DNA of 64,000 nt, taken from positions 5,846 to 69,845 of the forward strand of contig JBGSNL010000003.1 of the NCBI GenBank assembly GCA_041739675.1, in the 5' to 3' direction. This DNA is from a bacterium. Its GTDB lineage: Bacteria > UBA10199 > 2-02-FULL-44-16 > DYJF01. Made by a program: the position numbers and the translations under genes. Positions 83 to 42,241 of the stretch are shown here, piece after piece; the first letter of the stretch is position 1; each line of letters begins with the position of its first letter. The notes under the pieces were generated by a model. The model worked only from the letters and a program-made list of their open reading frames with translations. It searched no databases and was not told the DNA's origin.

Positions 83-1126
83 ATGAAAAAAATACTATTT
101 GTGGCGGTGCTCTTTTTGGCGGCGGGATGCGGAGGCAACAGTAACTTGAACAACGCGCCTGCAACGACATCTATATCAGACATGGAAATCAAGGTTGCGC
201 CCGAATCGATCCGCGTCGGAATGGAGGCCGGCCTATTTGTGAAGGTGACCCTGAGCACAGGTGAACAGATTGAGAATCTGACAAGAAGCTTTGAGGATCC
301 CGACGGCGGCGGGGAGCTCCCCATCGAATGGACAAGCTCTAACGAAGCGGTGGCCCATATAGATGAAGATTCGAAACTCGTTTCGGTGTCGCCGGGTTCC
401 GTTACTATAACGGCCTATTTAATGGGAAAATCGCAGTCGAAAACGGTTCGCATCTTCGATGCATATTCTTCCATCACCCCGTCTGCTGACGAAAGTGTTG
501 CGGAGGAGGAGACAGGCGGGGAGCCGACAGAGCCGCCGGCAATCGGTGAGGATACGCCGTGCACCGGTCACGCCGCCGCCGTAGTATCTTTTTCGCCGGG
601 TACCGGTTCCGGCTACGGGATGGATTCGTTGCCGGGTATCGTCATGGGCCCGCCTCACGGCGCGGGCAACGTCAGAGGTTCCACTCACGTGCTAAGCCTC
701 GGCAGGTTGGGTGAGATCGTTCTGGATTTGGGCGATTGCGCGCTTGTAGACGGGCCGGGCGCCGATCTGATCGTGTTTGAAAATGCATTTTTCATAAGCG
801 GCGATCCGGAAAATCCATATGCGGAGCTGGGCGTTGTGGGTGTAAGCGAAGACGGTGTGGATTTTGTTGAGTTTGCGTGCAGTGCGGACGATTTTCCGTA
901 CACCGGTTGCGCGGGGTGGAACCCCGTTTATTCATCAACATCGAACCGCATAAGCCCGTTCGATATCGCAAACGCAGGTGGGGATCATTTTGATCTGGCC
1001 GATTTGGATATAGGAGTTGCACATTATATAAAGATACGCGATGCCGGCACGGAAGGTTTTGGGACCTCGGTCGGTTTCGATCTGGATGCGATATCTGTCG
1101 TGCACGGCGTAAGGGAGACCCATTGA
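83..1126 (+). CDS. Lipoprotein with a bacterial Ig-like (Big_2) domain and a C-terminal domain of unknown function. First gene of the ABC importer operon.
   Basis: N-terminal MKKILFVAVLFLAAGCGG is a signal peptide with a lipobox. The middle region has a Big_2-like pattern (VSVSPGSVTITAY). Its stop overlaps the next start (ATGA at 1123-1126). Confidence 0.6.
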   Translation: MKKILFVAVLFLAAGCGGNSNLNNAPATTSISDMEIKVAPESIRVGMEAGLFVKVTLSTGEQIENLTRSFEDPDGGGELPIEWTSSNEAVAHIDEDSKLVSVSPGSVTITAYLMGKSQSKTVRIFDAYSSITPSADESVAEEETGGEPTEPPAIGEDTPCTGHAAAVVSFSPGTGSGYGMDSLPGIVMGPPHGAGNVRGSTHVLSLGRLGEIVLDLGDCALVDGPGADLIVFENAFFISGDPENPYAELGVVGVSEDGVDFVEFACSADDFPYTGCAGWNPVYSSTSNRISPFDIANAGGDHFDLADLDIGVAHYIKIRDAGTEGFGTSVGFDLDAISVVHGVRETH

Positions 1127-2121
1127 AACTTCTCACTTTCAAAAGATGGGCGGCGGTGAACGGTCTGCTACTTCTTTTGCTCGCGGGAGTGATCGTTGTC
1201 GGCGTTCTCATAGGCGCGGGCCATATAAATATTACGGATGCGATACGAAATACTGGCGGGCGCGACGGCGCGATACTTTTTTCATCAAGGTTGCCAAGGG
1301 TTCTTTTGGCGGCACTTGTCGGCATGGCCCTGGCCTCATCGGGCGGCGCGTTTCAGGCGTTGCTTAGAAATCCCCTGGCTGATCCCTTCATTCTGGGCGT
1401 TTCGGGCGGCGCGGCACTGGGAAGTGTCGCTGCGGTCGGTCTTCATCTTTCATTCGGTGCCATTTCCGCCGCCGCGTTTATATCGGCACTGCTCACGATT
1501 TTTTTCATCTTCGCCGTCGCAAGGACAAAGGGGAGACTTCCCACTCATACGCTGCTCCTCACTGGTGTCATCTTCAACGCATTTTGTTTTGCGCTCATCC
1601 TATTCATAAATGCGATCGTCACGATGGAACAGGCCTATCAGATAATATTTCTCCTGATCGGAAATCTTGAGGCCACAAATTACAAGACGATCGCGATAGT
1701 GGCTGCGTTTGTCTTGACGGGATTCGTTGCACTCACCGTATTTGCGTCAAAGATGAATGTGCTGACCTTGGGCGATGAACCGGCCTCCCATCTTGGCATC
1801 AATCCCGAAAGGCTCCGCGTGATAATATTCGTGGCGAGCTCGCTCATGGTGGGCGCCGCCGTTGCGGTGTCGGGGCTCGTGGGTTTCGTGGGACTTTTCA
1901 TCCCGCACATAATCCGCCTCATCTTCGGGCCCGACCACAGGCTTCTTATTCCGGCATCCGGTTTGTTGGGCGCCGCGTTTCTTGTTGCGTCGGACACGGC
2001 GGCGAGGACGATTCTCATGAACACAAGTTACGCAACGGAACTGCCGGTCGGCGTCATAACGGCTTTGATAGGCGCGCCGGCTTTTGTCTTCCTCTTAAAG
2101 AAACAGCAGAGAGCCATATAA
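1123..2121 (+). CDS. ABC transporter permease of the FecCD/BtuC family (iron-siderophore/cobalamin type)
   Basis: Polytopic membrane protein with the FecCD-family motif FILGVSGGAALG and a Gly/Ala-rich TM core. Translationally coupled to the flanking genes. Confidence 0.8.
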   Translation: MKLLTFKRWAAVNGLLLLLLAGVIVVGVLIGAGHINITDAIRNTGGRDGAILFSSRLPRVLLAALVGMALASSGGAFQALLRNPLADPFILGVSGGAALGSVAAVGLHLSFGAISAAAFISALLTIFFIFAVARTKGRLPTHTLLLTGVIFNAFCFALILFINAIVTMEQAYQIIFLLIGNLEATNYKTIAIVAAFVLTGFVALTVFASKMNVLTLGDEPASHLGINPERLRVIIFVASSLMVGAAVAVSGLVGFVGLFIPHIIRLIFGPDHRLLIPASGLLGAAFLVASDTAARTILMNTSYATELPVGVITALIGAPAFVFLLKKQQRAI

Positions 2122-2122
2122 A

Positions 2123-2902
2123 ATGATAGAGCTTCAAAACATATCCTTTTCGTACGATGACGGTCCGCATGCCTTGAGAGGTATCTCTCTAAAAGTAGGC
2201 AAGGGGGAGTTTGTGGGAATTCTGGGGCCGAACGGTTCGGGAAAAACCACACTTTTAAAAATCATCTCCGGTATACTTAAGGCCCAGCGGGGCGCGCTTT
2301 TTCTGGAGGGAAGACCGTTCGAAAAGGTGCAACACAAGAATCGCGCAAAATTTATTGCCGTTGTCCCGCAGGAGACCTCCATTCCGTTTTCCTTTTCGGC
2401 GGTTGAAGTCGTTCTGATGGGTCGGGCGCCGTATCTTAAGCCGTTCGGATTCGAGACGAAAGCAGACATTGTCATCGCGAAAAACGCAATGTCGGCTACC
2501 GATGTCTCGCATCTGTCCGAGAGAAATATTCAGGAGCTATCGGGCGGTGAAAAGCAGAGGGTGATAGTAGCCCGGGCGTTGGCGCAGGAGCCGCAACTTC
2601 TTCTTCTGGACGAGCCGACGACTTTTCTGGATATCAAACATCAGATGGAGCTTTACCGTTTGGTCAAAAAAAGAAACGAAGAGGACGGGCTGACGGTGAT
2701 AACGGTGCTGCATGACATCAATCTTGCGTCAACTTTCTGCGACAGGATAATATTTTTGAAGCAGGGGCAAATTGTCGCCGACGGCACGCCCCATGACGTG
2801 ATAAAGTACGCAAAGATAAAAGAAGTCTTTGATACCGAAGTTTATGTTGGTATAAACGATCTGACCGGAATGCCGTATTACGTGCCGTTTGCAAATAAAT
2901 GA
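2123..2902 (+). CDS. ABC transporter ATP-binding protein (FecE/BtuD-like)
   Basis: Walker A GPNGSGKTT, ABC signature LSGGEKQRV, Walker B LLLLDEPT. Confidence 0.85.
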   Translation: MIELQNISFSYDDGPHALRGISLKVGKGEFVGILGPNGSGKTTLLKIISGILKAQRGALFLEGRPFEKVQHKNRAKFIAVVPQETSIPFSFSAVEVVLMGRAPYLKPFGFETKADIVIAKNAMSATDVSHLSERNIQELSGGEKQRVIVARALAQEPQLLLLDEPTTFLDIKHQMELYRLVKKRNEEDGLTVITVLHDINLASTFCDRIIFLKQGQIVADGTPHDVIKYAKIKEVFDTEVYVGINDLTGMPYYVPFANK

Positions 2903-3477
2903 AGAAGACACTGAAAATCGCCATATTTGTTTCCGTTACCGTCCATGCCGCCGCCTTTCTGGGGATCGCAGGGTGGTCTCTCATTTCAGTCGCCGGTATC
3001 GGGGGCGGGGAGGGGATGGTGGAGGTGGGGATTGTAGGCAGCGAAGGCGTAAAAGCACAGGCGTTGCCAGTGCGCACGTCACTCCGCAATTCTATGACGA
3101 CGGATAAAGTGTCCGAAGCTTTGTCGGAGCCGAAAAGCGATTATATCGACGGTCATGGTGGCGGCGGAGGAACAGGCGGCGGCGACGGTGGAACGGGATT
3201 CGGCGTCGGCGATCCCAGGCTCACGCAAATCTGGAAAAAGATAAACCGCGCAAAATATTATCCCGAAATGGCAAGAAGGGACGGTGCAGAAGGAGCGCCC
3301 AAAATTGCTTTTTCAATTTCCGAAGACGGCAAAGTCGGCGGTGTGAAGATCGTTCAGTCATCAGGAAACGAAGTTTTGGACAATGCGGCTATAGAGGCAA
3401 TTCAAAACAGCGCCCCACTCCCGTTCTATCCCCAACCCATCACGATAGCCGTTCGCTATTCACTCAAGGATCACTAA
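2899..3477 (+). CDS. TonB C-terminal domain protein (energy transducer TonB-like)
   Basis: N-terminal TM anchor, a Gly-rich spacer (GGGGGTGGGDGG) and a C-terminal TonB-like segment (KYYPEMARRDGAEGAPKIAFSISEDGKV...AIEAIQNSAPLP). Start overlaps the stop of the ATPase gene. Confidence 0.7.
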   Translation: MKKTLKIAIFVSVTVHAAAFLGIAGWSLISVAGIGGGEGMVEVGIVGSEGVKAQALPVRTSLRNSMTTDKVSEALSEPKSDYIDGHGGGGGTGGGDGGTGFGVGDPRLTQIWKKINRAKYYPEMARRDGAEGAPKIAFSISEDGKVGGVKIVQSSGNEVLDNAAIEAIQNSAPLPFYPQPITIAVRYSLKDH

Positions 3478-4498: not shown

Positions 4499-6577
4499 TT
4501 ATTTTGAAACAAGTTCAGTAACAAGATCCCACGCGGGATTCTCGCGCGCCTTTGCGCATCTTGCAAGGAGTTCTCTAGATGGGCCGTCCTCCATGTAGAT
4601 CCGCAAAAGTTCCCGTAAGATAGGCTCTGCCTCGTCAAAGGAGCGCTCTTCGAATTTCGCGAATGCGCTGGCGAATTCATCCGCGATGCGCCTTGAAGGT
4701 TCGAAATCGGGATCGTCTGCGGGCCCCATCACCTCATAGAGGAGCACCGCATCCGATTTCCCCTTCACACGCACACGATCGAGCGGACGGATGATGACCG
4801 ATTTGTCTATGGCCTTGGCCGTGCGCTCGGATACCATGACGCGCGTACCGTAAAACTTGTTGGCCCCTTCTAGGCGGCTGGCAAGATTGACCGTGTCGCC
4901 GATCGCAGTGTAATCGAAACGCGATTCGGAACCCATGTTGCCCACCACCGCTTCGCCGGTATTTATTCCAACGCGCGTCAGGATCGGCCGTCCGCAGATC
5001 GATTCCCATCTGCTCGTTATCTCATTGCTTGCGTTTTGAATTTCGATGGCCGAACGGACTGCGGCCATTTCATGATCCGAAACATCCAGGGGCGCGTTAA
5101 AGAATGCGATGACCGCGTCACCTTCGTACTTGTCTATCGTGCCGCCGTGGCGGAAGAGTATTTCGTTCATCCGGCTCAAATATTCATTCAGGAATTTCAC
5201 TAGGAGATCGGGATTGAGACGTTCCGATATCGAAGTGAACGATGCGATATCCGTGAATAGCGACGTGATCGTTCTTTTCTCTCCGCCAAGTTTCACGAGC
5301 TCGGGATTTTCGATTAACCGCGCAACGACGGTGGGCGGAACATATTGCGCAAATGTCTGCTTGATCCATTTTCGTTGTCTTCCTTCGGTTATGGCCTTCC
5401 ATCCGATGCCGAGGCCGAAGCCCGTGACCACTCCCAGTCCGGGAATGACAACGGGAACGACAATCGCCCACCTTCTGAAGAACAAGACCGCGCATCCGAT
5501 GAGCGCGCCCAACGTTAAAAGAAAAATGAAGCTCGATTTGAAAGGTGAATAAGAGGAAGCCGCGGCCGCCACTAATATAATGATAAGGGCGGCCAGGATC
5601 CAAAGCTGTCTCGGCTCAAAAGTATAATAAAATTGGGAAGTTAGAAGATTTGAGAGGATGTTTGAGTGGATCTCCACTCCGTTCATCCGGGCGTAGCCGG
5701 TAAATTTTGCGAAATATGGCGTCAGGTAAGCGTCTTGAAGGTCTTCATATGCGGCGCCGACGAGTATGATTTTTCCCTTGAGCCAGTCGGCTGGAACGAG
5801 TCCCTTGGCAAGGAGCTGGGCCGAAAAGATTTTGAACGTGTTTGATGTGCCTCCGATTTTTGAAGGGGGGCCGGCAAATCTTATGAACGTCTCGCCTGTC
5901 GGTTTTGCGAAAGGTGTGAGTTTCAAAGAACCGAGCTGCGGCCAGTTGGAGTCATCGGATATTGTGCCTGCAGCCGACTTACCCGTCGCCTTTTCGAAAA
6001 TGAGCGCTGCAAACGAAGGGGTTTTGCCGAGATCGGTAGAAAAATTGTATTTCGCATAACGCACTACGGAGTCGAACGGATTGAAAGGTAGATCGGCGAG
6101 CCCCAGCCCGTCTATCGTCTCGCGGAAGAGCGGCAACGGAAGATCGGCGCATCCGTCTGTGCCCGATTTTCCCGCGGCGCAACCGCCCATGCGCATCGGC
6201 ATCACTGCATAGACCTGCCCTTGGCTGAAACTTGCGGCAAGCGCGTTATCATAATCGGAATAGGACGGGTCCTTGAGAAAAATGTCATACGCGATGAGTT
6301 TGGGCTCCGCCTCAAGGAGTTTGTTATTGAGTTCGGTCAGGAAATCTCTGGGAACCGGCGAGCGGTAGGGAAGCTCCGCCATCGTTTTCTCGTCCAGCCA
6401 GATCATCACGATGTCGGGAGAGGCTTTTGTTTCAGGAGCGAATGCGATTTGCCGCAAATCAAAAGTCGTGGCCTCAAGACTTTCAATTATCTTCAAATGC
6501 GACAGCCCCCATACAATCCCAAACGCCACAAACGAGATCAGCGCCACGGAGACAAATTGTGCAAAACTTTTTTTCAT
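4499..6577 (-). CDS. Class III adenylate/guanylate cyclase with a periplasmic CHASE2 sensor domain
   Basis: N-terminal TM segment, a long extracytoplasmic region, a TM cluster, then a class III cyclase catalytic core (FTDIASFTSISERL...GDAVIAFFNAP...GINTGEAVVGNMGS). Confidence 0.8.
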   Translation of the reverse strand: MKKSFAQFVSVALISFVAFGIVWGLSHLKIIESLEATTFDLRQIAFAPETKASPDIVMIWLDEKTMAELPYRSPVPRDFLTELNNKLLEAEPKLIAYDIFLKDPSYSDYDNALAASFSQGQVYAVMPMRMGGCAAGKSGTDGCADLPLPLFRETIDGLGLADLPFNPFDSVVRYAKYNFSTDLGKTPSFAALIFEKATGKSAAGTISDDSNWPQLGSLKLTPFAKPTGETFIRFAGPPSKIGGTSNTFKIFSAQLLAKGLVPADWLKGKIILVGAAYEDLQDAYLTPYFAKFTGYARMNGVEIHSNILSNLLTSQFYYTFEPRQLWILAALIIILVAAAASSYSPFKSSFIFLLTLGALIGCAVLFFRRWAIVVPVVIPGLGVVTGFGLGIGWKAITEGRQRKWIKQTFAQYVPPTVVARLIENPELVKLGGEKRTITSLFTDIASFTSISERLNPDLLVKFLNEYLSRMNEILFRHGGTIDKYEGDAVIAFFNAPLDVSDHEMAAVRSAIEIQNASNEITSRWESICGRPILTRVGINTGEAVVGNMGSESRFDYTAIGDTVNLASRLEGANKFYGTRVMVSERTAKAIDKSVIIRPLDRVRVKGKSDAVLLYEVMGPADDPDFEPSRRIADEFASAFAKFEERSFDEAEPILRELLRIYMEDGPSRELLARCAKARENPAWDLVTELVSK

Positions 6578-6601
6578 GATTTCGTGGAATGGCGAGGCGT
6601 A

Positions 6602-6732
6602 GGAGCTGAGGTGTCATGGGGCGTCTCGGAGGCGATTGCATCTATGGATATAATGCTGCAATCGCCGAGAGACGAGGTGCGTTTTTGGGCCGTAACCCAA
6701 AAACGACGCCGTACCCATGACACCTCAGCTCC
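6602..6732. repeat. Nested inverted-repeat element. A perfect 19 bp outer stem encloses two inner hairpins. Candidate structured RNA, terminator or REP/MITE-like element.
   Basis: GGAGCTGAGGTGTCATGGG (6602-6620) is the exact reverse complement of CCCATGACACCTCAGCTCC (6714-6732). Inner hairpin 1: GGCGATTGCA / TGCAATCGCC (6631-6640 / 6657-6666), extended by CGTCTC / GAGACG. Inner hairpin 2: GTTTTTGGG / CCCAAAAAC (6681-6689 / 6696-6704). Confidence 0.6.
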
Positions 6733-6751
6733 GAAAGCCTCGCCCGTCGAT

Positions 6752-7909
6752 TTAAACATCATAACACCCTATCGCGCGCGAGATGACTATGCGCTGTATC
6801 TCGCTTGTGCCTTCGCCTATTTCTAAAAGTTTCTGGTCGCGGTAGAACCTCTCGATTTTGTATTCCTGCATGAGGCCGTAACCGCCGTGGAGCTGGACCG
6901 CGTGGTTCACGACGCGGTACATGACCTCCGAGCAGTAGAGCTTGGCCATCGCAGCCTCTTTTGAATAGGGTTTTTCATTGTCTTTCAGCCAGCAGGCCTT
7001 GTAGAGAAGGGAGCGCGCCGCTTCGATCTCGACTGCGCAGTCGGCCAGTTTGAACGCGTTGACCTGGAAAGTTGAAATGGGTTTTCCGAACTGCTTGCGT
7101 TCTTTCGCGTATTTCATGCCGAGCTCGAACGCACCCTGCGCGCCGCCCAACCCCATTGCCGCGATTGAGAGCCTTCCGGCGTCCAGTGTGTCCAACATCT
7201 GATGAAAACCCTCGTCGCGGTTGCCCAAAATGTGATCTTCCGGAACCTCAACGTTGTCGAAATAGAGTTCCGCGGTGTTTGAGGAGCGCCACACCATTTT
7301 ATTTTTCATAGCGCGTCTTGTGAATCCCTTGGAGTTGGACTCAACAATGATGCAGGAAAGTTCCTTTCTTCCGTCCGATCTCTTTCCGGTTGCCGCCTGA
7401 ACCGTGACGCCGGCAGTTATTTCCGTGGCGGCGTTCGTTATAAAGATTTTCGCGCCGTTGATTATCCATTTTCCGCCTTTGAGCTCAGCCGTGGTTTTTG
7501 TGGCGGCCGCATCGGAGCCGGCATCGGGTTCGGTTAGCCCGAAGCCCCAGAGTTTTTTGCCGGTGCAAAGTTCAGGCAGATATTTTTTCTTCTGTTTGTC
7601 GTTTCCAAATTTATAAAGAGGACCGATGCCAAGGGAATTTCCCGCGGCCACGGTTGCCGCCTGCGACCCGTCGATACGGGCCAGCTCCTCAACGAGGATG
7701 ATATACGAAAGATAGTCCATCCCCTGACCGCCGTATTTGGGATCGACCGTTATGCCGAAAAATCCCATCTCCCCCATTTTTTTAGTGATGTCGTAGGAGA
7801 ACTCCTCTTTGCGGTCTAACTCCTCCACTTTAGGAGCGATCTCCCCCTCAGCAAAATCGCGAACAGATTTTCTCAAAAGTTCCTGCTCCGGTAATAAATT
7901 GAAATCCAT
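6752..7909 (-). CDS. Acyl-CoA dehydrogenase (short/medium-chain type)
   Basis: Full-length ACAD architecture. N-terminus MDFNLLPEQELLRKSVRDFAEGEIAP and C-terminal YRDQKLLEIGEGTSEIQR motif. Confidence 0.85.
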   Translation of the reverse strand: MDFNLLPEQELLRKSVRDFAEGEIAPKVEELDRKEEFSYDITKKMGEMGFFGITVDPKYGGQGMDYLSYIILVEELARIDGSQAATVAAGNSLGIGPLYKFGNDKQKKKYLPELCTGKKLWGFGLTEPDAGSDAAATKTTAELKGGKWIINGAKIFITNAATEITAGVTVQAATGKRSDGRKELSCIIVESNSKGFTRRAMKNKMVWRSSNTAELYFDNVEVPEDHILGNRDEGFHQMLDTLDAGRLSIAAMGLGGAQGAFELGMKYAKERKQFGKPISTFQVNAFKLADCAVEIEAARSLLYKACWLKDNEKPYSKEAAMAKLYCSEVMYRVVNHAVQLHGGYGLMQEYKIERFYRDQKLLEIGEGTSEIQRIVISRAIGCYDV

Positions 7910-13426: not shown

Positions 13427-14441
13427 TTTTCACCGTGTCCACAAAAGCCGCAACGCTCGCAACGGGGGTTTTGGGAAGAACCCCGTGGCCGAGATTGGCG
13501 ATGTATCCGGATTCGTTGCCTGCGCCTTCAAGCATCCGGAGCGTCTCGCGTTCGACGGTTGAAGGGGACCTCAAAAGCGTTTCGGGATTCAAGTTTCCCT
13601 GGATCGCCGCGCTATTTTTTGCGCGCCCGATCGCCTCTTTGATATCGATGTCGGAGCCTACGCTCAAAACGTCCGCCCCCGATGATATCATCATGTCAAA
13701 GAGCTCAGAGCTGTTCCTGACATAAAGAATCGCAACGGCGCCCGTTTTTTTGATCTCCGAAACTATTTTTTTGACGTACGGCAGCGCGAATTTTTCATAT
13801 TCGAAAGGGGAAAGAAGCCCGCCCCACGTATCGAATATCTGTATGGCGTCGCTGCCTGCGCTGACCTGCTGGATGGCAAGCGAAGAAATAGTCGGTGTTA
13901 TTTTTTCAAGAAGAGCAGAAACAATTTCAGGCGATTCGCGCAGAAGTGAAATTGCGGAATCGAAACTGCCGCTCCCCCCTTCGATCATATAAGCTGCGAG
14001 GGTCCATGGCGCCCCTACAAATCCCAGAAGTGCCGTTTCCTCTTTGAGCTCGTGGCGGAGATTTTGGGTCGCTTCAAGAAGATGGGGCAGCGAAATGCGC
14101 ACGTTGGGGGAGGACAGGTTTTTTACATCGGCTGCCGTTGTAATTTTTGAATCGAATCTCGGGCCTACATTCTCTTCAAAACGGAGCTTCATCCCCATCG
14201 CATTGAGGGGAAGCAGGATGTCGGAAAAAACGATGACCGCATCCATCCCGAAGCGGCGCCACGGTTGCAGCGACACTTCGAAGATGAGGTCGGGCCTCCT
14301 GCACATCGTGAGGAAATCGTATTTTTCGCGGAGCTCCTGATATTCAGGAAGATATCTTCCTGCCTGGCGCATCAGCCAGACCGGCCTCCGGTCGACTGTT
14401 AACCGCCGGCACGCATTAACAAAGCGCTCGCGGGAGTTCAT
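13410..14441 (-). CDS. hemE: Uroporphyrinogen decarboxylase
   Basis: Classic HemE N-terminus PVWLMRQAGRYLPEY. Confidence 0.9.
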   Translation of the reverse strand: MNSRERFVNACRRLTVDRRPVWLMRQAGRYLPEYQELREKYDFLTMCRRPDLIFEVSLQPWRRFGMDAVIVFSDILLPLNAMGMKLRFEENVGPRFDSKITTAADVKNLSSPNVRISLPHLLEATQNLRHELKEETALLGFVGAPWTLAAYMIEGGSGSFDSAISLLRESPEIVSALLEKITPTISSLAIQQVSAGSDAIQIFDTWGGLLSPFEYEKFALPYVKKIVSEIKKTGAVAILYVRNSSELFDMMISSGADVLSVGSDIDIKEAIGRAKNSAAIQGNLNPETLLRSPSTVERETLRMLEGAGNESGYIANLGHGVLPKTPVASVAAFVDTVKNAKYR

Positions 14442-17275: not shown

Positions 17276-18301
17276 ATGGAAAACGTTGCGCAAAAAATAT
17301 TCGCCGTGGTTTTGGGAGTCGCGCTTACATTGATGATGGCTCAATGCACGAAGAGCGGGAGTATTCCGTTCGGTGCGGAGCCGAACATTGAAGAGGGCAC
17401 GATCCCGTTTGACAAGACCGGGGTGGAGAATCTGGCGGGAGAGGCCGCGGTCGAAGGCGTCCCGGCGCAAAAGCCGCTTGTGGAGAGTATGCCGGAAGAG
17501 TTGACTTTGGTGTCTCATCCCGCGTCGCTTGTCTCAAATCTCCCTGATGGTTCGGAGGCGACCGTTCTCTTTTGCATGGACGGCGGAAAGGTTTTTTCAT
17601 CGGCAGTTTGGTCCGAACTTGTGAAGACCCCGACTCTCACAAAATTCGTCGAAAAAATGGAGTCGAAGGCCGGCCAGAATATCGAAGGGGCCTATTTGTG
17701 GACATTCGCCTGTTCGCCGCTTGCCGACAAGGATTGCGGCCAGAAGCTTCTTATCGTGGAACCCTTAAAAACAGTTTCCGCCGAAGAGGAAGCGGTTTCA
17801 TTAAAAATTCCTTTCGATACGGCGGGCCTGCCCATTTTATCTGCGGGTGGTTTCGATTCGTATAAGAAAGACGACGTGTTCTACGCCGTGAAGAACGGCA
17901 AGATGATGGTTTCGAACAATGAGCCCCTAATGAAAGCGGCGCTGCTGAACGATATGCTGTCACCGAAAATTCCCGCCGATTCCGTAGCTGTCCTGATTGC
18001 AAAAATGCCCGCAAAGGTTCTGGAGAAAATTGATTTCTTCAAGCCGAACGCTGCGAATGTGAAGCCGGTTCAAAAGATGGTGGCGTTCCTCAAGATAGCT
18101 CCGGATGAAAATCCGGAATTGGACATAAAATATTATGCGGGGGACTATGTGGCGGCTGCAACCGTCGTGAGACTCGACATCGAGCTCGTCGATTGGGATA
18201 AGTTGTTTAATTTCTTTAAGTCTGAAGATTCGAAAGATACAAAGACCGAAGTCGATTCGGCGAATAAACCGGTGACTAATTCCAATTCCAAAACCGAGTG
18301 A
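17276..18301 (+). CDS. Secreted lipoprotein, unknown function
   Basis: GGAGG RBS. Signal peptide plus lipobox (ALTLMMAQC). Followed by an intrinsic terminator. Confidence 0.5.
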   Translation: MENVAQKIFAVVLGVALTLMMAQCTKSGSIPFGAEPNIEEGTIPFDKTGVENLAGEAAVEGVPAQKPLVESMPEELTLVSHPASLVSNLPDGSEATVLFCMDGGKVFSSAVWSELVKTPTLTKFVEKMESKAGQNIEGAYLWTFACSPLADKDCGQKLLIVEPLKTVSAEEEAVSLKIPFDTAGLPILSAGGFDSYKKDDVFYAVKNGKMMVSNNEPLMKAALLNDMLSPKIPADSVAVLIAKMPAKVLEKIDFFKPNAANVKPVQKMVAFLKIAPDENPELDIKYYAGDYVAAATVVRLDIELVDWDKLFNFFKSEDSKDTKTEVDSANKPVTNSNSKTE

Positions 18302-20871: not shown

Positions 20872-22041
20872 TTATCTCCGGAATTTCAGGCGCACCTTTG
20901 TGCCCAGCCTTGAAAGCAACTCCACAACGAGCCCCGTGGGACAGAAGATGCGGCACCACGGGCGCCTTAGAAAAAGCGCCGCGACGAGAATTGTCCCGGA
21001 CTGGATCCAGACCGCGCTTCCGGCGTCGGGAGCAAAACAGCGCGAGAATGGCTCCACGTTTCTGAATGCCGGCACGTTGAAAGCGACGACCGCCACGATC
21101 ACCGCTGCCAGGACCAGCCACCTGATCCGGCCGGCGTGCTTCATCCATTTATCGTCTACTCCGCATTTGGGAATCTTTGCGGCGGAGGCCGCGTCCTGCA
21201 TCGCTCCGAACGGGCAGAGATATGAGCAGTAAAGCGGGCCCTTGAAGAGCGCGGAGACGACGGCGAATATAAGAAGCGAGAGAAGTGCCAGATTGTTGAT
21301 GCCGGGAATATCGCCATATCCGAGATCCAGAAAATTTCCGATCGACACCGGTGTGTTGAAGAGAAGGCCGATCACGATGAATGAAAGAAGGAGCGAGGAG
21401 GAGCGAAGTATGCGTTTCCCGGGCATGTAGACCGCGAGGATTGAAAATCCGATGAGAAAAAGCGCCGCGATGCCCGCGATCTTGGGCCTGTCGATAATGA
21501 CGTTACTTATTGCCGATTTTTTTTTTGACGCTTCGGAGAAAATTCCGCTCTTCAGAACCTTGTCAGCGGCCGCAAGAGACGCGGCGTGAATATCCTCTTT
21601 CATGGCCTGGGAAGATATCGTGGCGCCTGTCACGGTTTCGATTCTGCTCCAGTCGTCGGTGGGTTTCATTCCAAGAAAGCGTTTGAAAAATCCTGCGGAG
21701 ATTATTCGCTGCATGTGTTCGGGGCTGTCCTGATGGGCCAGAAGTTTTGTCCCGGTGATCGCACCCGATTTATCGACGCCCACAAGGACCGATAGCTCGT
21801 CCCTGTAACCGCCTATTTCAGGCGGAACCCTGGTTGTGATGACGGCGACCCCTGCCAGGCTGCCTTCGGAGTCAAAAAGGCTGTAACAGTCGATGGGCTC
21901 ACTGAGATGTTTGAAGCTTTTGGCCCCGGGGACCATGGAAAGGATATCCTTTTGAGAGGGCTCGGAAACGGGGCCGGCGGCGAATGCGCCAGCCGAGATG
22001 AGGATGATCAGAAAAATTGTAATTTGCCTGATCGCGGACAT
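20872..22041 (-). CDS. Membrane FMN-binding-domain protein with two 4Fe-4S CxxxCP motifs (NosR/NapH-like polyferredoxin)
   Basis: Start chosen at MSAIRQITIFLIILISAGAFA (signal peptide). Periplasmic FMN_bind-like segment (TGATISS). TM helices. CSYLCPFG and CRIFCPTG motifs. Confidence 0.6.
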   Translation of the reverse strand: MSAIRQITIFLIILISAGAFAAGPVSEPSQKDILSMVPGAKSFKHLSEPIDCYSLFDSEGSLAGVAVITTRVPPEIGGYRDELSVLVGVDKSGAITGTKLLAHQDSPEHMQRIISAGFFKRFLGMKPTDDWSRIETVTGATISSQAMKEDIHAASLAAADKVLKSGIFSEASKKKSAISNVIIDRPKIAGIAALFLIGFSILAVYMPGKRILRSSSLLLSFIVIGLLFNTPVSIGNFLDLGYGDIPGINNLALLSLLIFAVVSALFKGPLYCSYLCPFGAMQDAASAAKIPKCGVDDKWMKHAGRIRWLVLAAVIVAVVAFNVPAFRNVEPFSRCFAPDAGSAVWIQSGTILVAALFLRRPWCRIFCPTGLVVELLSRLGTKVRLKFRR

Positions 22042-22102
22042 GGCCGGAGTATGGGCCGACTCCCCTTGACGTGTCAATAGCAGGGGTTGTATAGGCCGGT
22101 TT

Positions 22103-22486
22103 ATGTATAAATGGACTCTATTGCTTTGTCTTTTGGTTGTCATTTCCTGCGGAGGCACCTCTTCCGATTCCGGATTTTTCGACGATGTGCCCACCGGTTC
22201 GTCTCCGGTCGTTTCGCGGCTGGATCCGGCCTCCGGCCCCGTCGGAACTTTGGTGACAATTTACGGTCTGGGATTTTCATATATCGCGCCGACGAATATT
22301 ATTGCGATGGGAACCGGGGCCGCTGTTGCGGAGAGTTATTCTATTTTAGCTGCCCCTACCACCGACGAGATCGAAACACTCACCTTCACGGTGCCGACGG
22401 GGCTTGCACCCGGAGCTTATCCGGTGGTAGTTGTCGTGCACGAAATTCCAAGCAACTCCGACGTGCAATTCACGGTGACGCCATGA
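22103..22486 (+). CDS. Small lipoprotein with an IPT/TIG-like Ig-fold domain
   Basis: Signal peptide plus lipobox (LLVVISCGG). PVVSRLDPASGPVGTLVTIYG is IPT-like. Stop overlaps the downstream kinase start (ATGA). Confidence 0.5.
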   Translation: MYKWTLLLCLLVVISCGGTSSDSGFFDDVPTGSSPVVSRLDPASGPVGTLVTIYGLGFSYIAPTNIIAMGTGAAVAESYSILAAPTTDEIETLTFTVPTGLAPGAYPVVVVVHEIPSNSDVQFTVTP

Positions 22487-41397: not shown

Positions 41398-41440
41398 AGA
41401 AAAAAGTTGCGCGGTATTTTTAAGCAATACCGCGCAACTT
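41398..41440 (-). terminator. Rho-independent terminator after gene E (14 bp perfect stem)
   Basis: AAGTTGCGCGGTAT-loop-ATACCGCGCAACTT followed on the minus strand by a U-run. Confidence 0.7.
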
Positions 41441-41466: not shown

Positions 41467-42213
41467 TTAGTGCTGTCCTTGTGCCCCTTGGCCTGCTGTC
41501 CACGGCACTTGGAATCCGCGTCCGGTGCCCGCATCGGCTGCAGGAGGAGGAGAAGGAGGAGGTGGCGGCGGCGTGGTCGTCGGACCGCCTTCACTCGAAC
41601 ACCTTTCAGCAGCCCTTTGCCTTGCACACTCGATATCCCCTTGGCATTGTGTAATTTCCGTGGCTGTTGGCTGGCAATTACTAGTAGATGGCGGCTGCTC
41701 GTTCATTTCGCGATGTGAACATCTGTCTTGAATACAAGCCGCGTAATCTTGAACATCCGGTCTTGAACATAATACTGTGTCTGAAGGTGTCGGCACACAT
41801 TCATAATGTGCCTGGCATTCTGTTCCCGCCAGGCCGGCTCGTATGTCGTCAACGGAACAAGGCGGCAACTGTGTGGCAACGTTTTGGCCGCTTAGTCTGT
41901 TTGCAAGCTCGAGCAAGAAGGAGGCAAAAGTATATGTACCGCCCCACAAGTTGATGCCTCCGTTTGATGAGCACATTTCGTTTGATTCAGCGGTGGGGCA
42001 AGTTTTGAATATCGTGTTTGCGATCACATAAGCAAAGCCTTCAAAAATAGCTTTAAGATTTTCCGGCACACGCTGCAGGTTGAGCGTGTAGGTATTGGTC
42101 GTATCCTGTACGCACTGAGTTATCTTGTCTTCAGTCTGCTCATTAGCGCATGCGAGCGAGGTGATTCTATCAAGCGTACTTCCGACATTTTGCGTCTGTC
42201 CTGCTGAAATCAT
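41467..42213 (-). CDS. Family member E: MISAGQ N-terminus, Cys-rich and Pro-rich small protein
   Basis: RBS AAAGGAGG then ATG. M-I-S-A-G fits the family start. Many Cys residues. C-terminal poly-Pro stretch (PPPPPPSPPP). Confidence 0.45.
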   Translation of the reverse strand: MISAGQTQNVGSTLDRITSLACANEQTEDKITQCVQDTTNTYTLNLQRVPENLKAIFEGFAYVIANTIFKTCPTAESNEMCSSNGGINLWGGTYTFASFLLELANRLSGQNVATQLPPCSVDDIRAGLAGTECQAHYECVPTPSDTVLCSRPDVQDYAACIQDRCSHREMNEQPPSTSNCQPTATEITQCQGDIECARQRAAERCSSEGGPTTTPPPPPPSPPPAADAGTGRGFQVPWTAGQGAQGQH

Positions 42214-42241
42214 AAGGCCTCCTTTTGAAGCGTTGTTCAAT

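Follow-up and report, generated by a model that had tools for sequence, protein, structure and literature searches.

The spacer between an acyl-CoA dehydrogenase gene (acd) and a gene encoding a CHASE2 and class III cyclase is filled, in the 64-kb stretch of bacterial DNA analyzed here (the window), by a long nested palindrome. Is this structure a signal that serves the two genes, or a piece of DNA that came from elsewhere? An earlier note on this DNA had named the two flanking genes and their common strand as we find them. It had proposed that the palindrome could be a complex terminator or attenuator, a cis-regulatory 5' UTR structure of the cyclase, a small structured RNA, or a mobile repeat similar to REPs or MITEs. 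Our analysis favors the last of these readings. The palindrome is probably one copy, of around 166 nt, of a non-autonomous and multi-copy mobile palindromic repeat, similar to MITEs and REPINs, whose family resides in an uncultivated Bdellovibrio-like clade.

Anatomy of the element

The coordinates of the element and of its surroundings are given in Table 1. Its most conspicuous part is a pair of arms of 19 nt each (GGAGCTGAGGTGTCATGGG and its partner), which are 100% complementary and have 93 nt between them. This 19-mer occurs only at these two sites in the 64-kb window, where 0.01 chance matches are expected. The arms enclose two hairpins, P2 and P3, and are themselves the inner part of a longer stem, P1. 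The earlier description of perfect 19-bp arms around two hairpins is thus borne out by the sequence and by the folds. P2 was also found as described, with a stem of 10 plus 6 bp (GGCGATTGCA/TGCAATCGCC above CGTCTC/GAGACG) and a loop of 16 nt, which contains ATGGATAT. For P3, the loop CCGTAA had been identified correctly, but the stem is longer than the reported 9 bp: it has 10 bp (CGTTTTTGGG/CCCAAAAACG), extended by four pairs (GGTG/CGCC) across a bulged A. The folds revealed an additional outer stem of 8 bp (GGCGAGGC/GCCTCGCC). Between it and the 19-bp stem lies an internal loop in which GTA is opposite GAAA, and the fold thus spans 6591-6744, beyond the limits first drawn for it. Two distances had to be corrected: the 19-bp arms lie 24 nt, not 25, from the cyclase start codon (6575-6577), and a gap of 19 nt separates them from the acd stop codon (6752-6754), which they had been said to follow directly.

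Table 1. Positions of the element, its parts, its surroundings, and the copies of the second family (window coordinates unless a locus is named).
Feature	Position	Strand	Remarks
CHASE2 and class III cyclase gene	4499-6577	-	
Block near-identical between the window and L004	6350-6900		82-98% nucleotide identity to L004 (sliding identity); 92-98% over 6449-6848
Whole acd-cyclase spacer	6578-6751		174 nt; inserted relative to orthologous loci
GATTT, left (candidate 5-bp target-site duplication)	6578-6582	+	Abuts the cyclase start codon
Proposed element proper	6583-6748	+	166 nt; GATTT direct repeats at both ends
P1 outer stem, 5' half (GGCGAGGC)	6591-6598	+	Pairs with 6737-6744; from folds
Conserved internal loop GYA (here GTA)	6599-6601	+	Opposite GARA at 6733-6736 (here GAAA)
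P1 inner stem, 5' arm	6602-6620	+	19 nt; perfect complementarity
P2	6622-6674	+	Lower stem CGTCTC 6622-6627 / GAGACG 6669-6674; internal loop GGA / GA; upper stem GGCGATTGCA 6631-6640 / TGCAATCGCC 6657-6666; 16-nt loop TCTATGGATATAATGC 6641-6656
P3	6676-6710	+	GGTG 6676-6679 and CGTTTTTGGG 6680-6689; loop CCGTAA 6690-6695; CCCAAAAACG 6696-6705, bulged A6706, and CGCC 6707-6710
P1 inner stem, 3' arm	6714-6732	+	19 nt; perfect complementarity
P1 outer stem, 3' half (GCCTCGCC)	6737-6744	+	From folds
GATTT, right (candidate target-site duplication)	6749-6753	+	Overlaps the acd stop codon
Acyl-CoA dehydrogenase gene (acd)	6752-7909	-	
Family B copies	L063 2915-3095, 13756-13901, 17701-17805; L032 5860-5978; L013 314-434; L021 8441-8514		

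Folded as RNA, the 174-nt spacer reaches -101.5 kcal/mol on the minus strand (z -12.8) and -110 kcal/mol on the plus strand (z -12.2). Folded as DNA, it reaches -63.9 and -61.4 kcal/mol (z -11.9 and -10.8). No shuffled sequence attained these energies, as RNA or as DNA and on either strand. By alignment with the family, the sense strand of the element corresponds to the plus strand of the window, i.e., it is antisense to both acd and the cyclase gene. A covariance model built from ten copies (R1) matches the window at 6596-6739 on this strand with 166.1 bits (E ~1e-36), and reaches 35 bits on the minus strand.

Comparison with orthologous junctions

We fetched orthologous loci and contigs via homologues of the cyclase protein. 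In L006 and L007, whose cyclases are 73% identical to that of the window, the acd stop and the cyclase start overlap by 11 nt. The TAA is directly followed by the ATG (0 nt) in L008 (cyclase 71%), and the spacer measures 13 nt in L009 (63%). In L060, which is the best non-self match (cyclase 80% identical over the part covered), the two genes overlap in ATGTATAA. When these five loci are aligned to the window by BLAST, the alignments end at the acd stop codon and start again around 50 nt inside the cyclase gene. Among the acd-cyclase loci compared, the 174-nt spacer was present only in the window and in L004 (contig DYJF01000033.1, from a MAG labelled 'Bdellovibrio sp.'), which was found by a scan with the 19-mer. 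Since five related loci, including the closest relative, have no such spacer, the comparison indicates that the element is an insertion into a junction where the two genes overlap or abut in relatives.

Excising the element together with one GATTT leaves TAA-ATC-ATG, a tight junction resembling those of the relatives; the reconstructed empty site of the window locus reads ...GTTTAAATCATGAAA.... The GATTT repeats at both ends would then be a target-site duplication, for which they are weak evidence, because such direct repeats are found in only 2 of the 11 full copies. These are the copies of the window (GATTT) and of L013 (TAATA), both with perfect 5-bp repeats, and the other 9 have none. We also considered that the element might have entered a pre-existing palindrome, such as the loop of a terminator, and rejected this idea: the empty sites are free of any palindrome, and the copies in L032/L056 and in L013/L055 share homologous outer stems while their flanks are unrelated.

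The copy shared by the window and L004 lies at the center of a block of around 500 nt that runs into both flanking genes (7150-7700 in L004). Over the rest of these genes, identity between the window and L004 amounts to 60-80%, and it declines on either side of the block. For comparison, L060 aligns to the window with 81% and 76% nucleotide identity, and L004 with 75% including the block. In other words, L060 is overall at least as close to the window as L004, yet its site is empty. The simplest reading of these identities is that the block is a homologous-recombination tract, through which the insertion passed from one lineage to another. This copy would thus have reached the second lineage via homologous recombination of its flanks, with no second transposition.

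The relatives have a different small hairpin, CCCCTCCTT...AAGGAGGGG, in the spacer between the cyclase gene and the next gene (around 2185-2215 in L008, 3750-3830 in L006, and 4400-4480 in L007). It would sequester a Shine-Dalgarno-like GGAGG, and a further palindrome lies within its loop in L006 and L007.

Copies at other sites

The earlier note had proposed a search for other copies, on the grounds that several of them would indicate a REP or a MITE. Multiple copies were indeed found: there are at least 12 further independent copies at other intergenic sites of related metagenomic contigs (13 matches). The taxonomy of the copies outside the window, all on metagenomic contigs, is deduced from synteny and one NCBI label. 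A BLAST search of the fetched loci with the spacer as query yielded two more copies. One is a second copy in L004 (5182-5326), which is oppositely oriented and separates the cyclase stop from the following gene; in the window, the spacer at this site measures 12 nt. The other is a partial copy at a contig end in L006 (4800-4888). We then scanned a metagenome collection with a motif conserved among copies, GCCGAGANNCGAGGNGCGTTT, and obtained 48 loci, of which 7 have a complete element and 41 are chance matches. The model R1 recovered all known copies at 138-169 bits. It added a second copy in L016 that is strongly diverged (113 bits), a copy at a third site of the same neighborhood in L060 (3129-3268, 94 bits), and a partial copy at a contig end in L061 (3120-3181). 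Apart from those in L004, L006, L060, and L061, the copies are in L013/L021, L016 (two, counting the diverged one), L032, L036, L055, and L056. Empty orthologous sites are known for two insertions. The loci fetched via the cyclase protein, which were not selected for the element, hold 6 copies in around 111 kb, and R1 run with filters off over the 64-kb window found one copy only. Empty orthologous junctions, together with copies at unrelated sites and in both orientations, thus agree with the mobile repeat that the earlier note had listed among its candidates.

Some matches were set aside. A 22-nt exact match (the arm plus 3 nt) in a Thermodesulfobacteriota MAG (L003 5288-5309), located at the start of an ABC-transporter ATPase gene (MTPQLLLS...), is without a partner arm and was judged a chance match. 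The same holds for L005, a hit of the 19-mer in the scan of genome contigs, where a single arm lies inside a coding region. No real match was found in a collection of viral contigs, and a distant blastn search against plasmids and phages gave no match.

Four contigs end inside a copy (L001 1-53, L002 3915-3962, and the partial copies of L006 and L061). Two of these, L001 and L002, are Logan contigs from SRR28170473, a sample that has the exact proteins of the window. Contigs commonly end inside repeats in de Bruijn assemblies, and several copies have P3 segments that match each other exactly over more than 31 nt. The contig ends suggest that segments identical over at least the k-mer length are present elsewhere in those samples.

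The neighbors of the copies are housekeeping genes: surE-pcm-[element]-nlpD-like, htrA-like, thiolase, 3-hydroxyacyl-CoA dehydrogenase, aldolase, and RNase E/G. There was no transposase beside any copy examined. Around five copies are in the sense orientation relative to the local genes and around five are antisense. As the nearby copy pairs in L004 and L016 are oppositely oriented, there is no strict strand bias of insertion. One copy is not intergenic: in L055 (2133-2291, minus strand), it lies in frame and free of stops inside an ORF of 833 residues (437-2938, plus strand), where it adds around 53 Gly/Pro-rich residues between radical-SAM domains and a DUF2344 domain.

The two loci with two copies each, L004 (5182-5326 on the minus strand and 7401-7544 on the plus strand) and L016 (11478-11621 on the minus strand and 13686-13826 on the plus strand), have the same divergent arrangement. 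The copies are around 2 kb apart with their 5' ends toward the enclosed genes, which could be due to chance. The enclosed genes are the cyclase gene in L004, and a DNA methylase gene and one for a 246-aa protein with no Pfam match in L016. L013 and L021 are one locus from two samples, in which the 3' arm differs at two positions (CCCCCTGGCCCCC vs. CCCCCAGACCCCC). The flanks shown are identical, and the arms may mutate faster than their surroundings.

A second, sister family (B) has the same architecture as the family of the window copy (A), i.e., a long stem and a three-way junction, and the two have in common some of the junction sequence (..GCCGTA before the 3' arm). Its conserved motifs are CGAGCGGCGT, CGCAGGCG, and GCCGTAGC. 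Family B coexists with family A in the same contigs (Table 1), and the window has no copy of it. One of the family B copies of L063 carries an extra perfect nested palindrome in the P3 loop (CCTGCCTGCCGGCAGGCAGG, around 17790-17830).

Conservation of the fold

All copies share one fold, a three-way junction of P1, P2, and P3. The outer part of P1 (8-16 bp) is the most variable region and follows a loose consensus, GAAyTCGGnGGC / GCCnCCGArTTC. The inner part measures 19-20 bp across copies and has compensatory double changes at 11 of 18 pairs; between subfamilies, its arms differ at 7 or more of the 19 positions. The G and the A of the GYA/GARA internal loop between these two parts are invariant in the family alignments. 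Covariation also affects 7 of the 9 pairs of the P2 upper stem, above which the loop motif RTCnATGGwTATnAT is conserved, and 8 of the 14 pairs of P3, where the loop is conserved as CCGTAA or CCGTTA and an A is bulged. In an alignment of 13 copies fitted to the covariance model, a procedure that favors the structure, 96.1% of the 596 cells are paired, as compared with 40-47% when the partners are slid by 1-3 columns. In this alignment, 29 of the 52 pairs changed on both sides, and none of 500 shuffles reached the observed values. An independent analysis with MAFFT and RNAalifold, including the outer stem, gave 26 covarying pairs out of 60. The fold and the loops are under selection.

The pairs comprise 532 Watson-Crick, 10 G-T (in the sense strand), 5 A-C (i.e., G-T in the antisense strand), and 13 of other types. 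As they are almost purely Watson-Crick, both strands can fold, as in a DNA palindrome. The sense strand is more stable by 4-12 kcal/mol in 8 of 10 copies, partly by virtue of the shared loops. The element measures 160-175 nt across copies and has no conserved ORF; an indel of 1 nt in the P3 loop (CCGTAA vs. CCGTAAT) shifts any reading frame. Small ORFs starting at an ATG in the arm or in the P2 loop were considered and discarded, because the copies differ in the start codon and indels put them out of frame. Resemblances of the loops to IHF sites, DnaA boxes, Fur boxes, and K-turns were noted by eye and are too weak to claim.

Terminator, cyclase regulator, or RNA

Might the element be a regulator specific to the cyclase, acting as a terminator or attenuator after acd or as a 5'-UTR sensor for the CHASE2 cyclase? 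It occupies the spacer from acd to the cyclase gene, it folds into a very stable structure 24 nt away from the start codon, and it was retained in two lineages. It also resembles an intrinsic (Rho-independent) terminator in having a GC-rich stem downstream of a stop codon. However, it has no U-tract on either strand, the stem being followed by ATTCCACGAAATC on the minus strand and by CGTCGATTTAAAC on the plus strand. It also encloses a branched region of 93 nt and appears to be a mobile multi-copy insertion. The sole call of a terminator scan was a weak 6-bp internal stem, whereas the genome does have proper terminators: a canonical one at 41404-41440 (minus strand), downstream of the gene at 41467-42240, has a perfect 15-bp stem and a 7-nt loop, then TTTTTTCTATTT. 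The terminator or attenuator suggested in the earlier note is therefore not supported. Its suggestion of a cis-regulatory 5' UTR fares no better, as the element is absent upstream of five orthologous cyclases, is found beside pcm/nlpD, htrA, thiolase, and other unrelated genes, and has its better-folding sense strand antisense to the cyclase in the window. Because of its absence from the orthologous junctions and its presence beside unrelated genes, together with the lack of an Rfam match (see below), a dedicated cyclase regulator is practically excluded.

A functional structured RNA is a more serious alternative. The element would then be a multi-copy sRNA gene or a cis-acting mRNA element (a processing site, a stabilizer, or an insulator), with the three-way junction and the loops selected at the RNA level and mobility being secondary. 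This would fit the strong covariation in all helices, the conserved loop and junction nucleotides, and the greater stability of the sense strand in most copies; position 85-116 even runs through C-G, U-G, and U-A. Yet G-U accounts for only 1.8% of the paired cells and its excess over A-C (10 vs. 5) is not significant, so that a strand-specific G-U bias had to be dropped as evidence for an RNA. Relative to the transcription units around them, the copies are as often sense as antisense, once even inside an ORF, and they share neither a promoter nor a U-tract terminator, with flanks that are unrelated between copies. Compensatory changes do not require a function as RNA, since REPINs have them too (PMC3116915). 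The Rfam covariance-model search that had been proposed earlier gave no family at the gathering threshold over the whole window. At permissive E-values, the element and a family B copy gave hits at chance level, mir-153 (E 0.084) and MIR6297 (E 0.0018), both far below threshold. A scan for tRNA and tmRNA found none, and a promoter scan of the element found no sigma-70-like promoter. We considered a promoter in the P2 loop (TATnAT) and rejected it: it has neither a -35 element nor a correctly spaced TG, and some family B copies lack the motif. With no Rfam match, no promoter or terminator of its own, almost exclusively Watson-Crick pairs, and no strand bias, the small structured RNA of the earlier note, and a functional RNA in general, seem very unlikely.

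Elsewhere in the window, a suspected ORF-free gap (21233-22110) proved to be covered by an ORF of 440 aa on the minus strand.

Relation to known repeats

Like MITEs, the element is small (below around 500 bp) and non-coding, has terminal inverted repeats (P1 arms of 27-35 bp in every full copy), and occurs as dispersed copies with presence/absence polymorphism. The termini of MITEs, which are the binding site of the transposase, are conserved among copies, whereas the outermost stem is here the most variable part. REPINs are short non-coding palindromic extragenic repeats, with hairpins predicted in single-stranded DNA or mRNA that compensatory changes keep (PMC3116915). The element shares with REPINs and BIMEs, which are mobilized by RAYTs (REP-associated tyrosine transposases), its extragenic location in both orientations, a hairpin kept by compensatory changes, the lack of a transposase inside, and the occurrence of several sequence families in one genome. 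However, a REPIN consists of two inverted palindromic REPs that form a symmetric hairpin. The arms of the element are not self-palindromic, and what they enclose lacks symmetry: two hairpins, unrelated to each other, meet there in a three-way junction. The RAYT gene of a REPIN system is a single-copy gene that the repeats typically flank; none was found next to any copy examined.

Correia elements (NEMIS, in Neisseria) and ERIC (in enterobacteria) form long RNA hairpins that RNase III can cut or that can change mRNA stability, depending on orientation. They are comparable to the element in that they lie between genes, as inverted repeats of 100-160 bp, and are transcribed along with their neighbors, but they have no sequence relationship to it. 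The 26-bp terminal repeats of Correia elements are conserved and come with a TA duplication, whereas our element has variable ends and no consistent duplication. Neither Correia nor ERIC elements feature the three-way junction and the conserved loops that it has. The copy of L055 recalls the Rickettsia palindromic elements (RPE), as a palindromic repeat in frame within a protein-coding gene. This is one case among around 13 copies, the rest of which are intergenic, and RPE differ in host clade and in sequence. Our literature search on Bdellovibrio together with REP or MITE found nothing relevant. The element is best filed as a member of a previously uncatalogued family, accompanied by a sister family, of bacterial miniature palindromic mobile repeats.

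Mode of mobility

A mobile repeat has to be reconciled with the single copy of the 64-kb window, which speaks against it, and with loops and covarying hairpins that exceed what a junk DDE-type MITE needs and would also fit a functional RNA. We propose that an enzyme whose gene lies elsewhere in the genome produces the copies in trans. There is perhaps an even chance that the substrate of this enzyme is the folded single strand, recognized by its structure as with HUH/RAYT or IS200-type enzymes. We favor this route because conservation is strong in the fold and the loops and weakest at the termini. It is less likely that a DDE transposase acts on the inverted-repeat ends in double-stranded form.

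The corresponding view of the whole family is that of an ordinary DDE-type MITE. It would be an internally deleted insertion sequence whose terminal inverted repeats are bound by a classical transposase, with 5-bp duplications and with internal hairpins that are incidental. The long inverted arms, the small size, the lack of an ORF, and the AT-rich flanks all agree with it, as do the perfect 5-bp repeats of the window and L013 copies and the plausible TAA-ATC-ATG restored by excision of the window copy. It does not explain why the outermost ends are the least conserved and the internal loops the most conserved, nor why P2 and P3 covary strongly, as a transposase that binds terminal repeats would not select for that. 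In addition, 9 of the 11 copies are without a target duplication, and the loci examined yielded no insertion sequence with matching ends that could be the parent. On balance, we consider a DDE-type MITE unlikely.

A different and tentative proposal, which we find possible if still doubtful, is that families A and B are not decayed DDE-type MITEs but structure-dependent replicators. They would propagate as a single strand (DNA, conceivably RNA) folded into the three-way junction. A dedicated enzyme would recognize the P2 and P3 loops and the GYA/GARA internal loop. If true, this would be a new REPIN-like system of element and enzyme in uncultivated Bdellovibrio-like bacteria, with an architecture unlike that of REP doublets. 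The conserved loops would in that case indicate a specific enzyme, and a co-occurrence analysis could identify it.

Possible consequences for the locus and for the clade

The operon transcript would carry the antisense strand of the element, with a predicted hairpin of around -100 kcal/mol made of a near-perfect duplex of 19+8 bp. This very stable stem would lie 13-24 nt ahead of the cyclase start codon, for which there is no Shine-Dalgarno sequence. Translation of the cyclase, ancestrally coupled to that of acd from stop to start, would thus have lost this coupling. By analogy with the elements discussed above, the long duplex could plausibly be an RNase III or processing site in the operon transcript. 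The element may affect the expression of the cyclase.

For annotation, the structure should not be read as a riboswitch, an attenuator, or an sRNA of the cyclase. The finding adds to a poorly studied clade of predatory bacteria an uncatalogued repeat superfamily with at least two families and with no Rfam, plasmid, or phage match. In three respects, the repeats depart from what is usual in bacterial MITEs: selection acts on a branched fold and on the sequence of the loops rather than on the ends; a gene tolerates one copy in its reading frame; and one insertion seems to have passed from lineage to lineage through homologous recombination of its flanks. The insertion between a fatty-acid enzyme gene and a signalling cyclase gene is a natural experiment on the expression of an operon.
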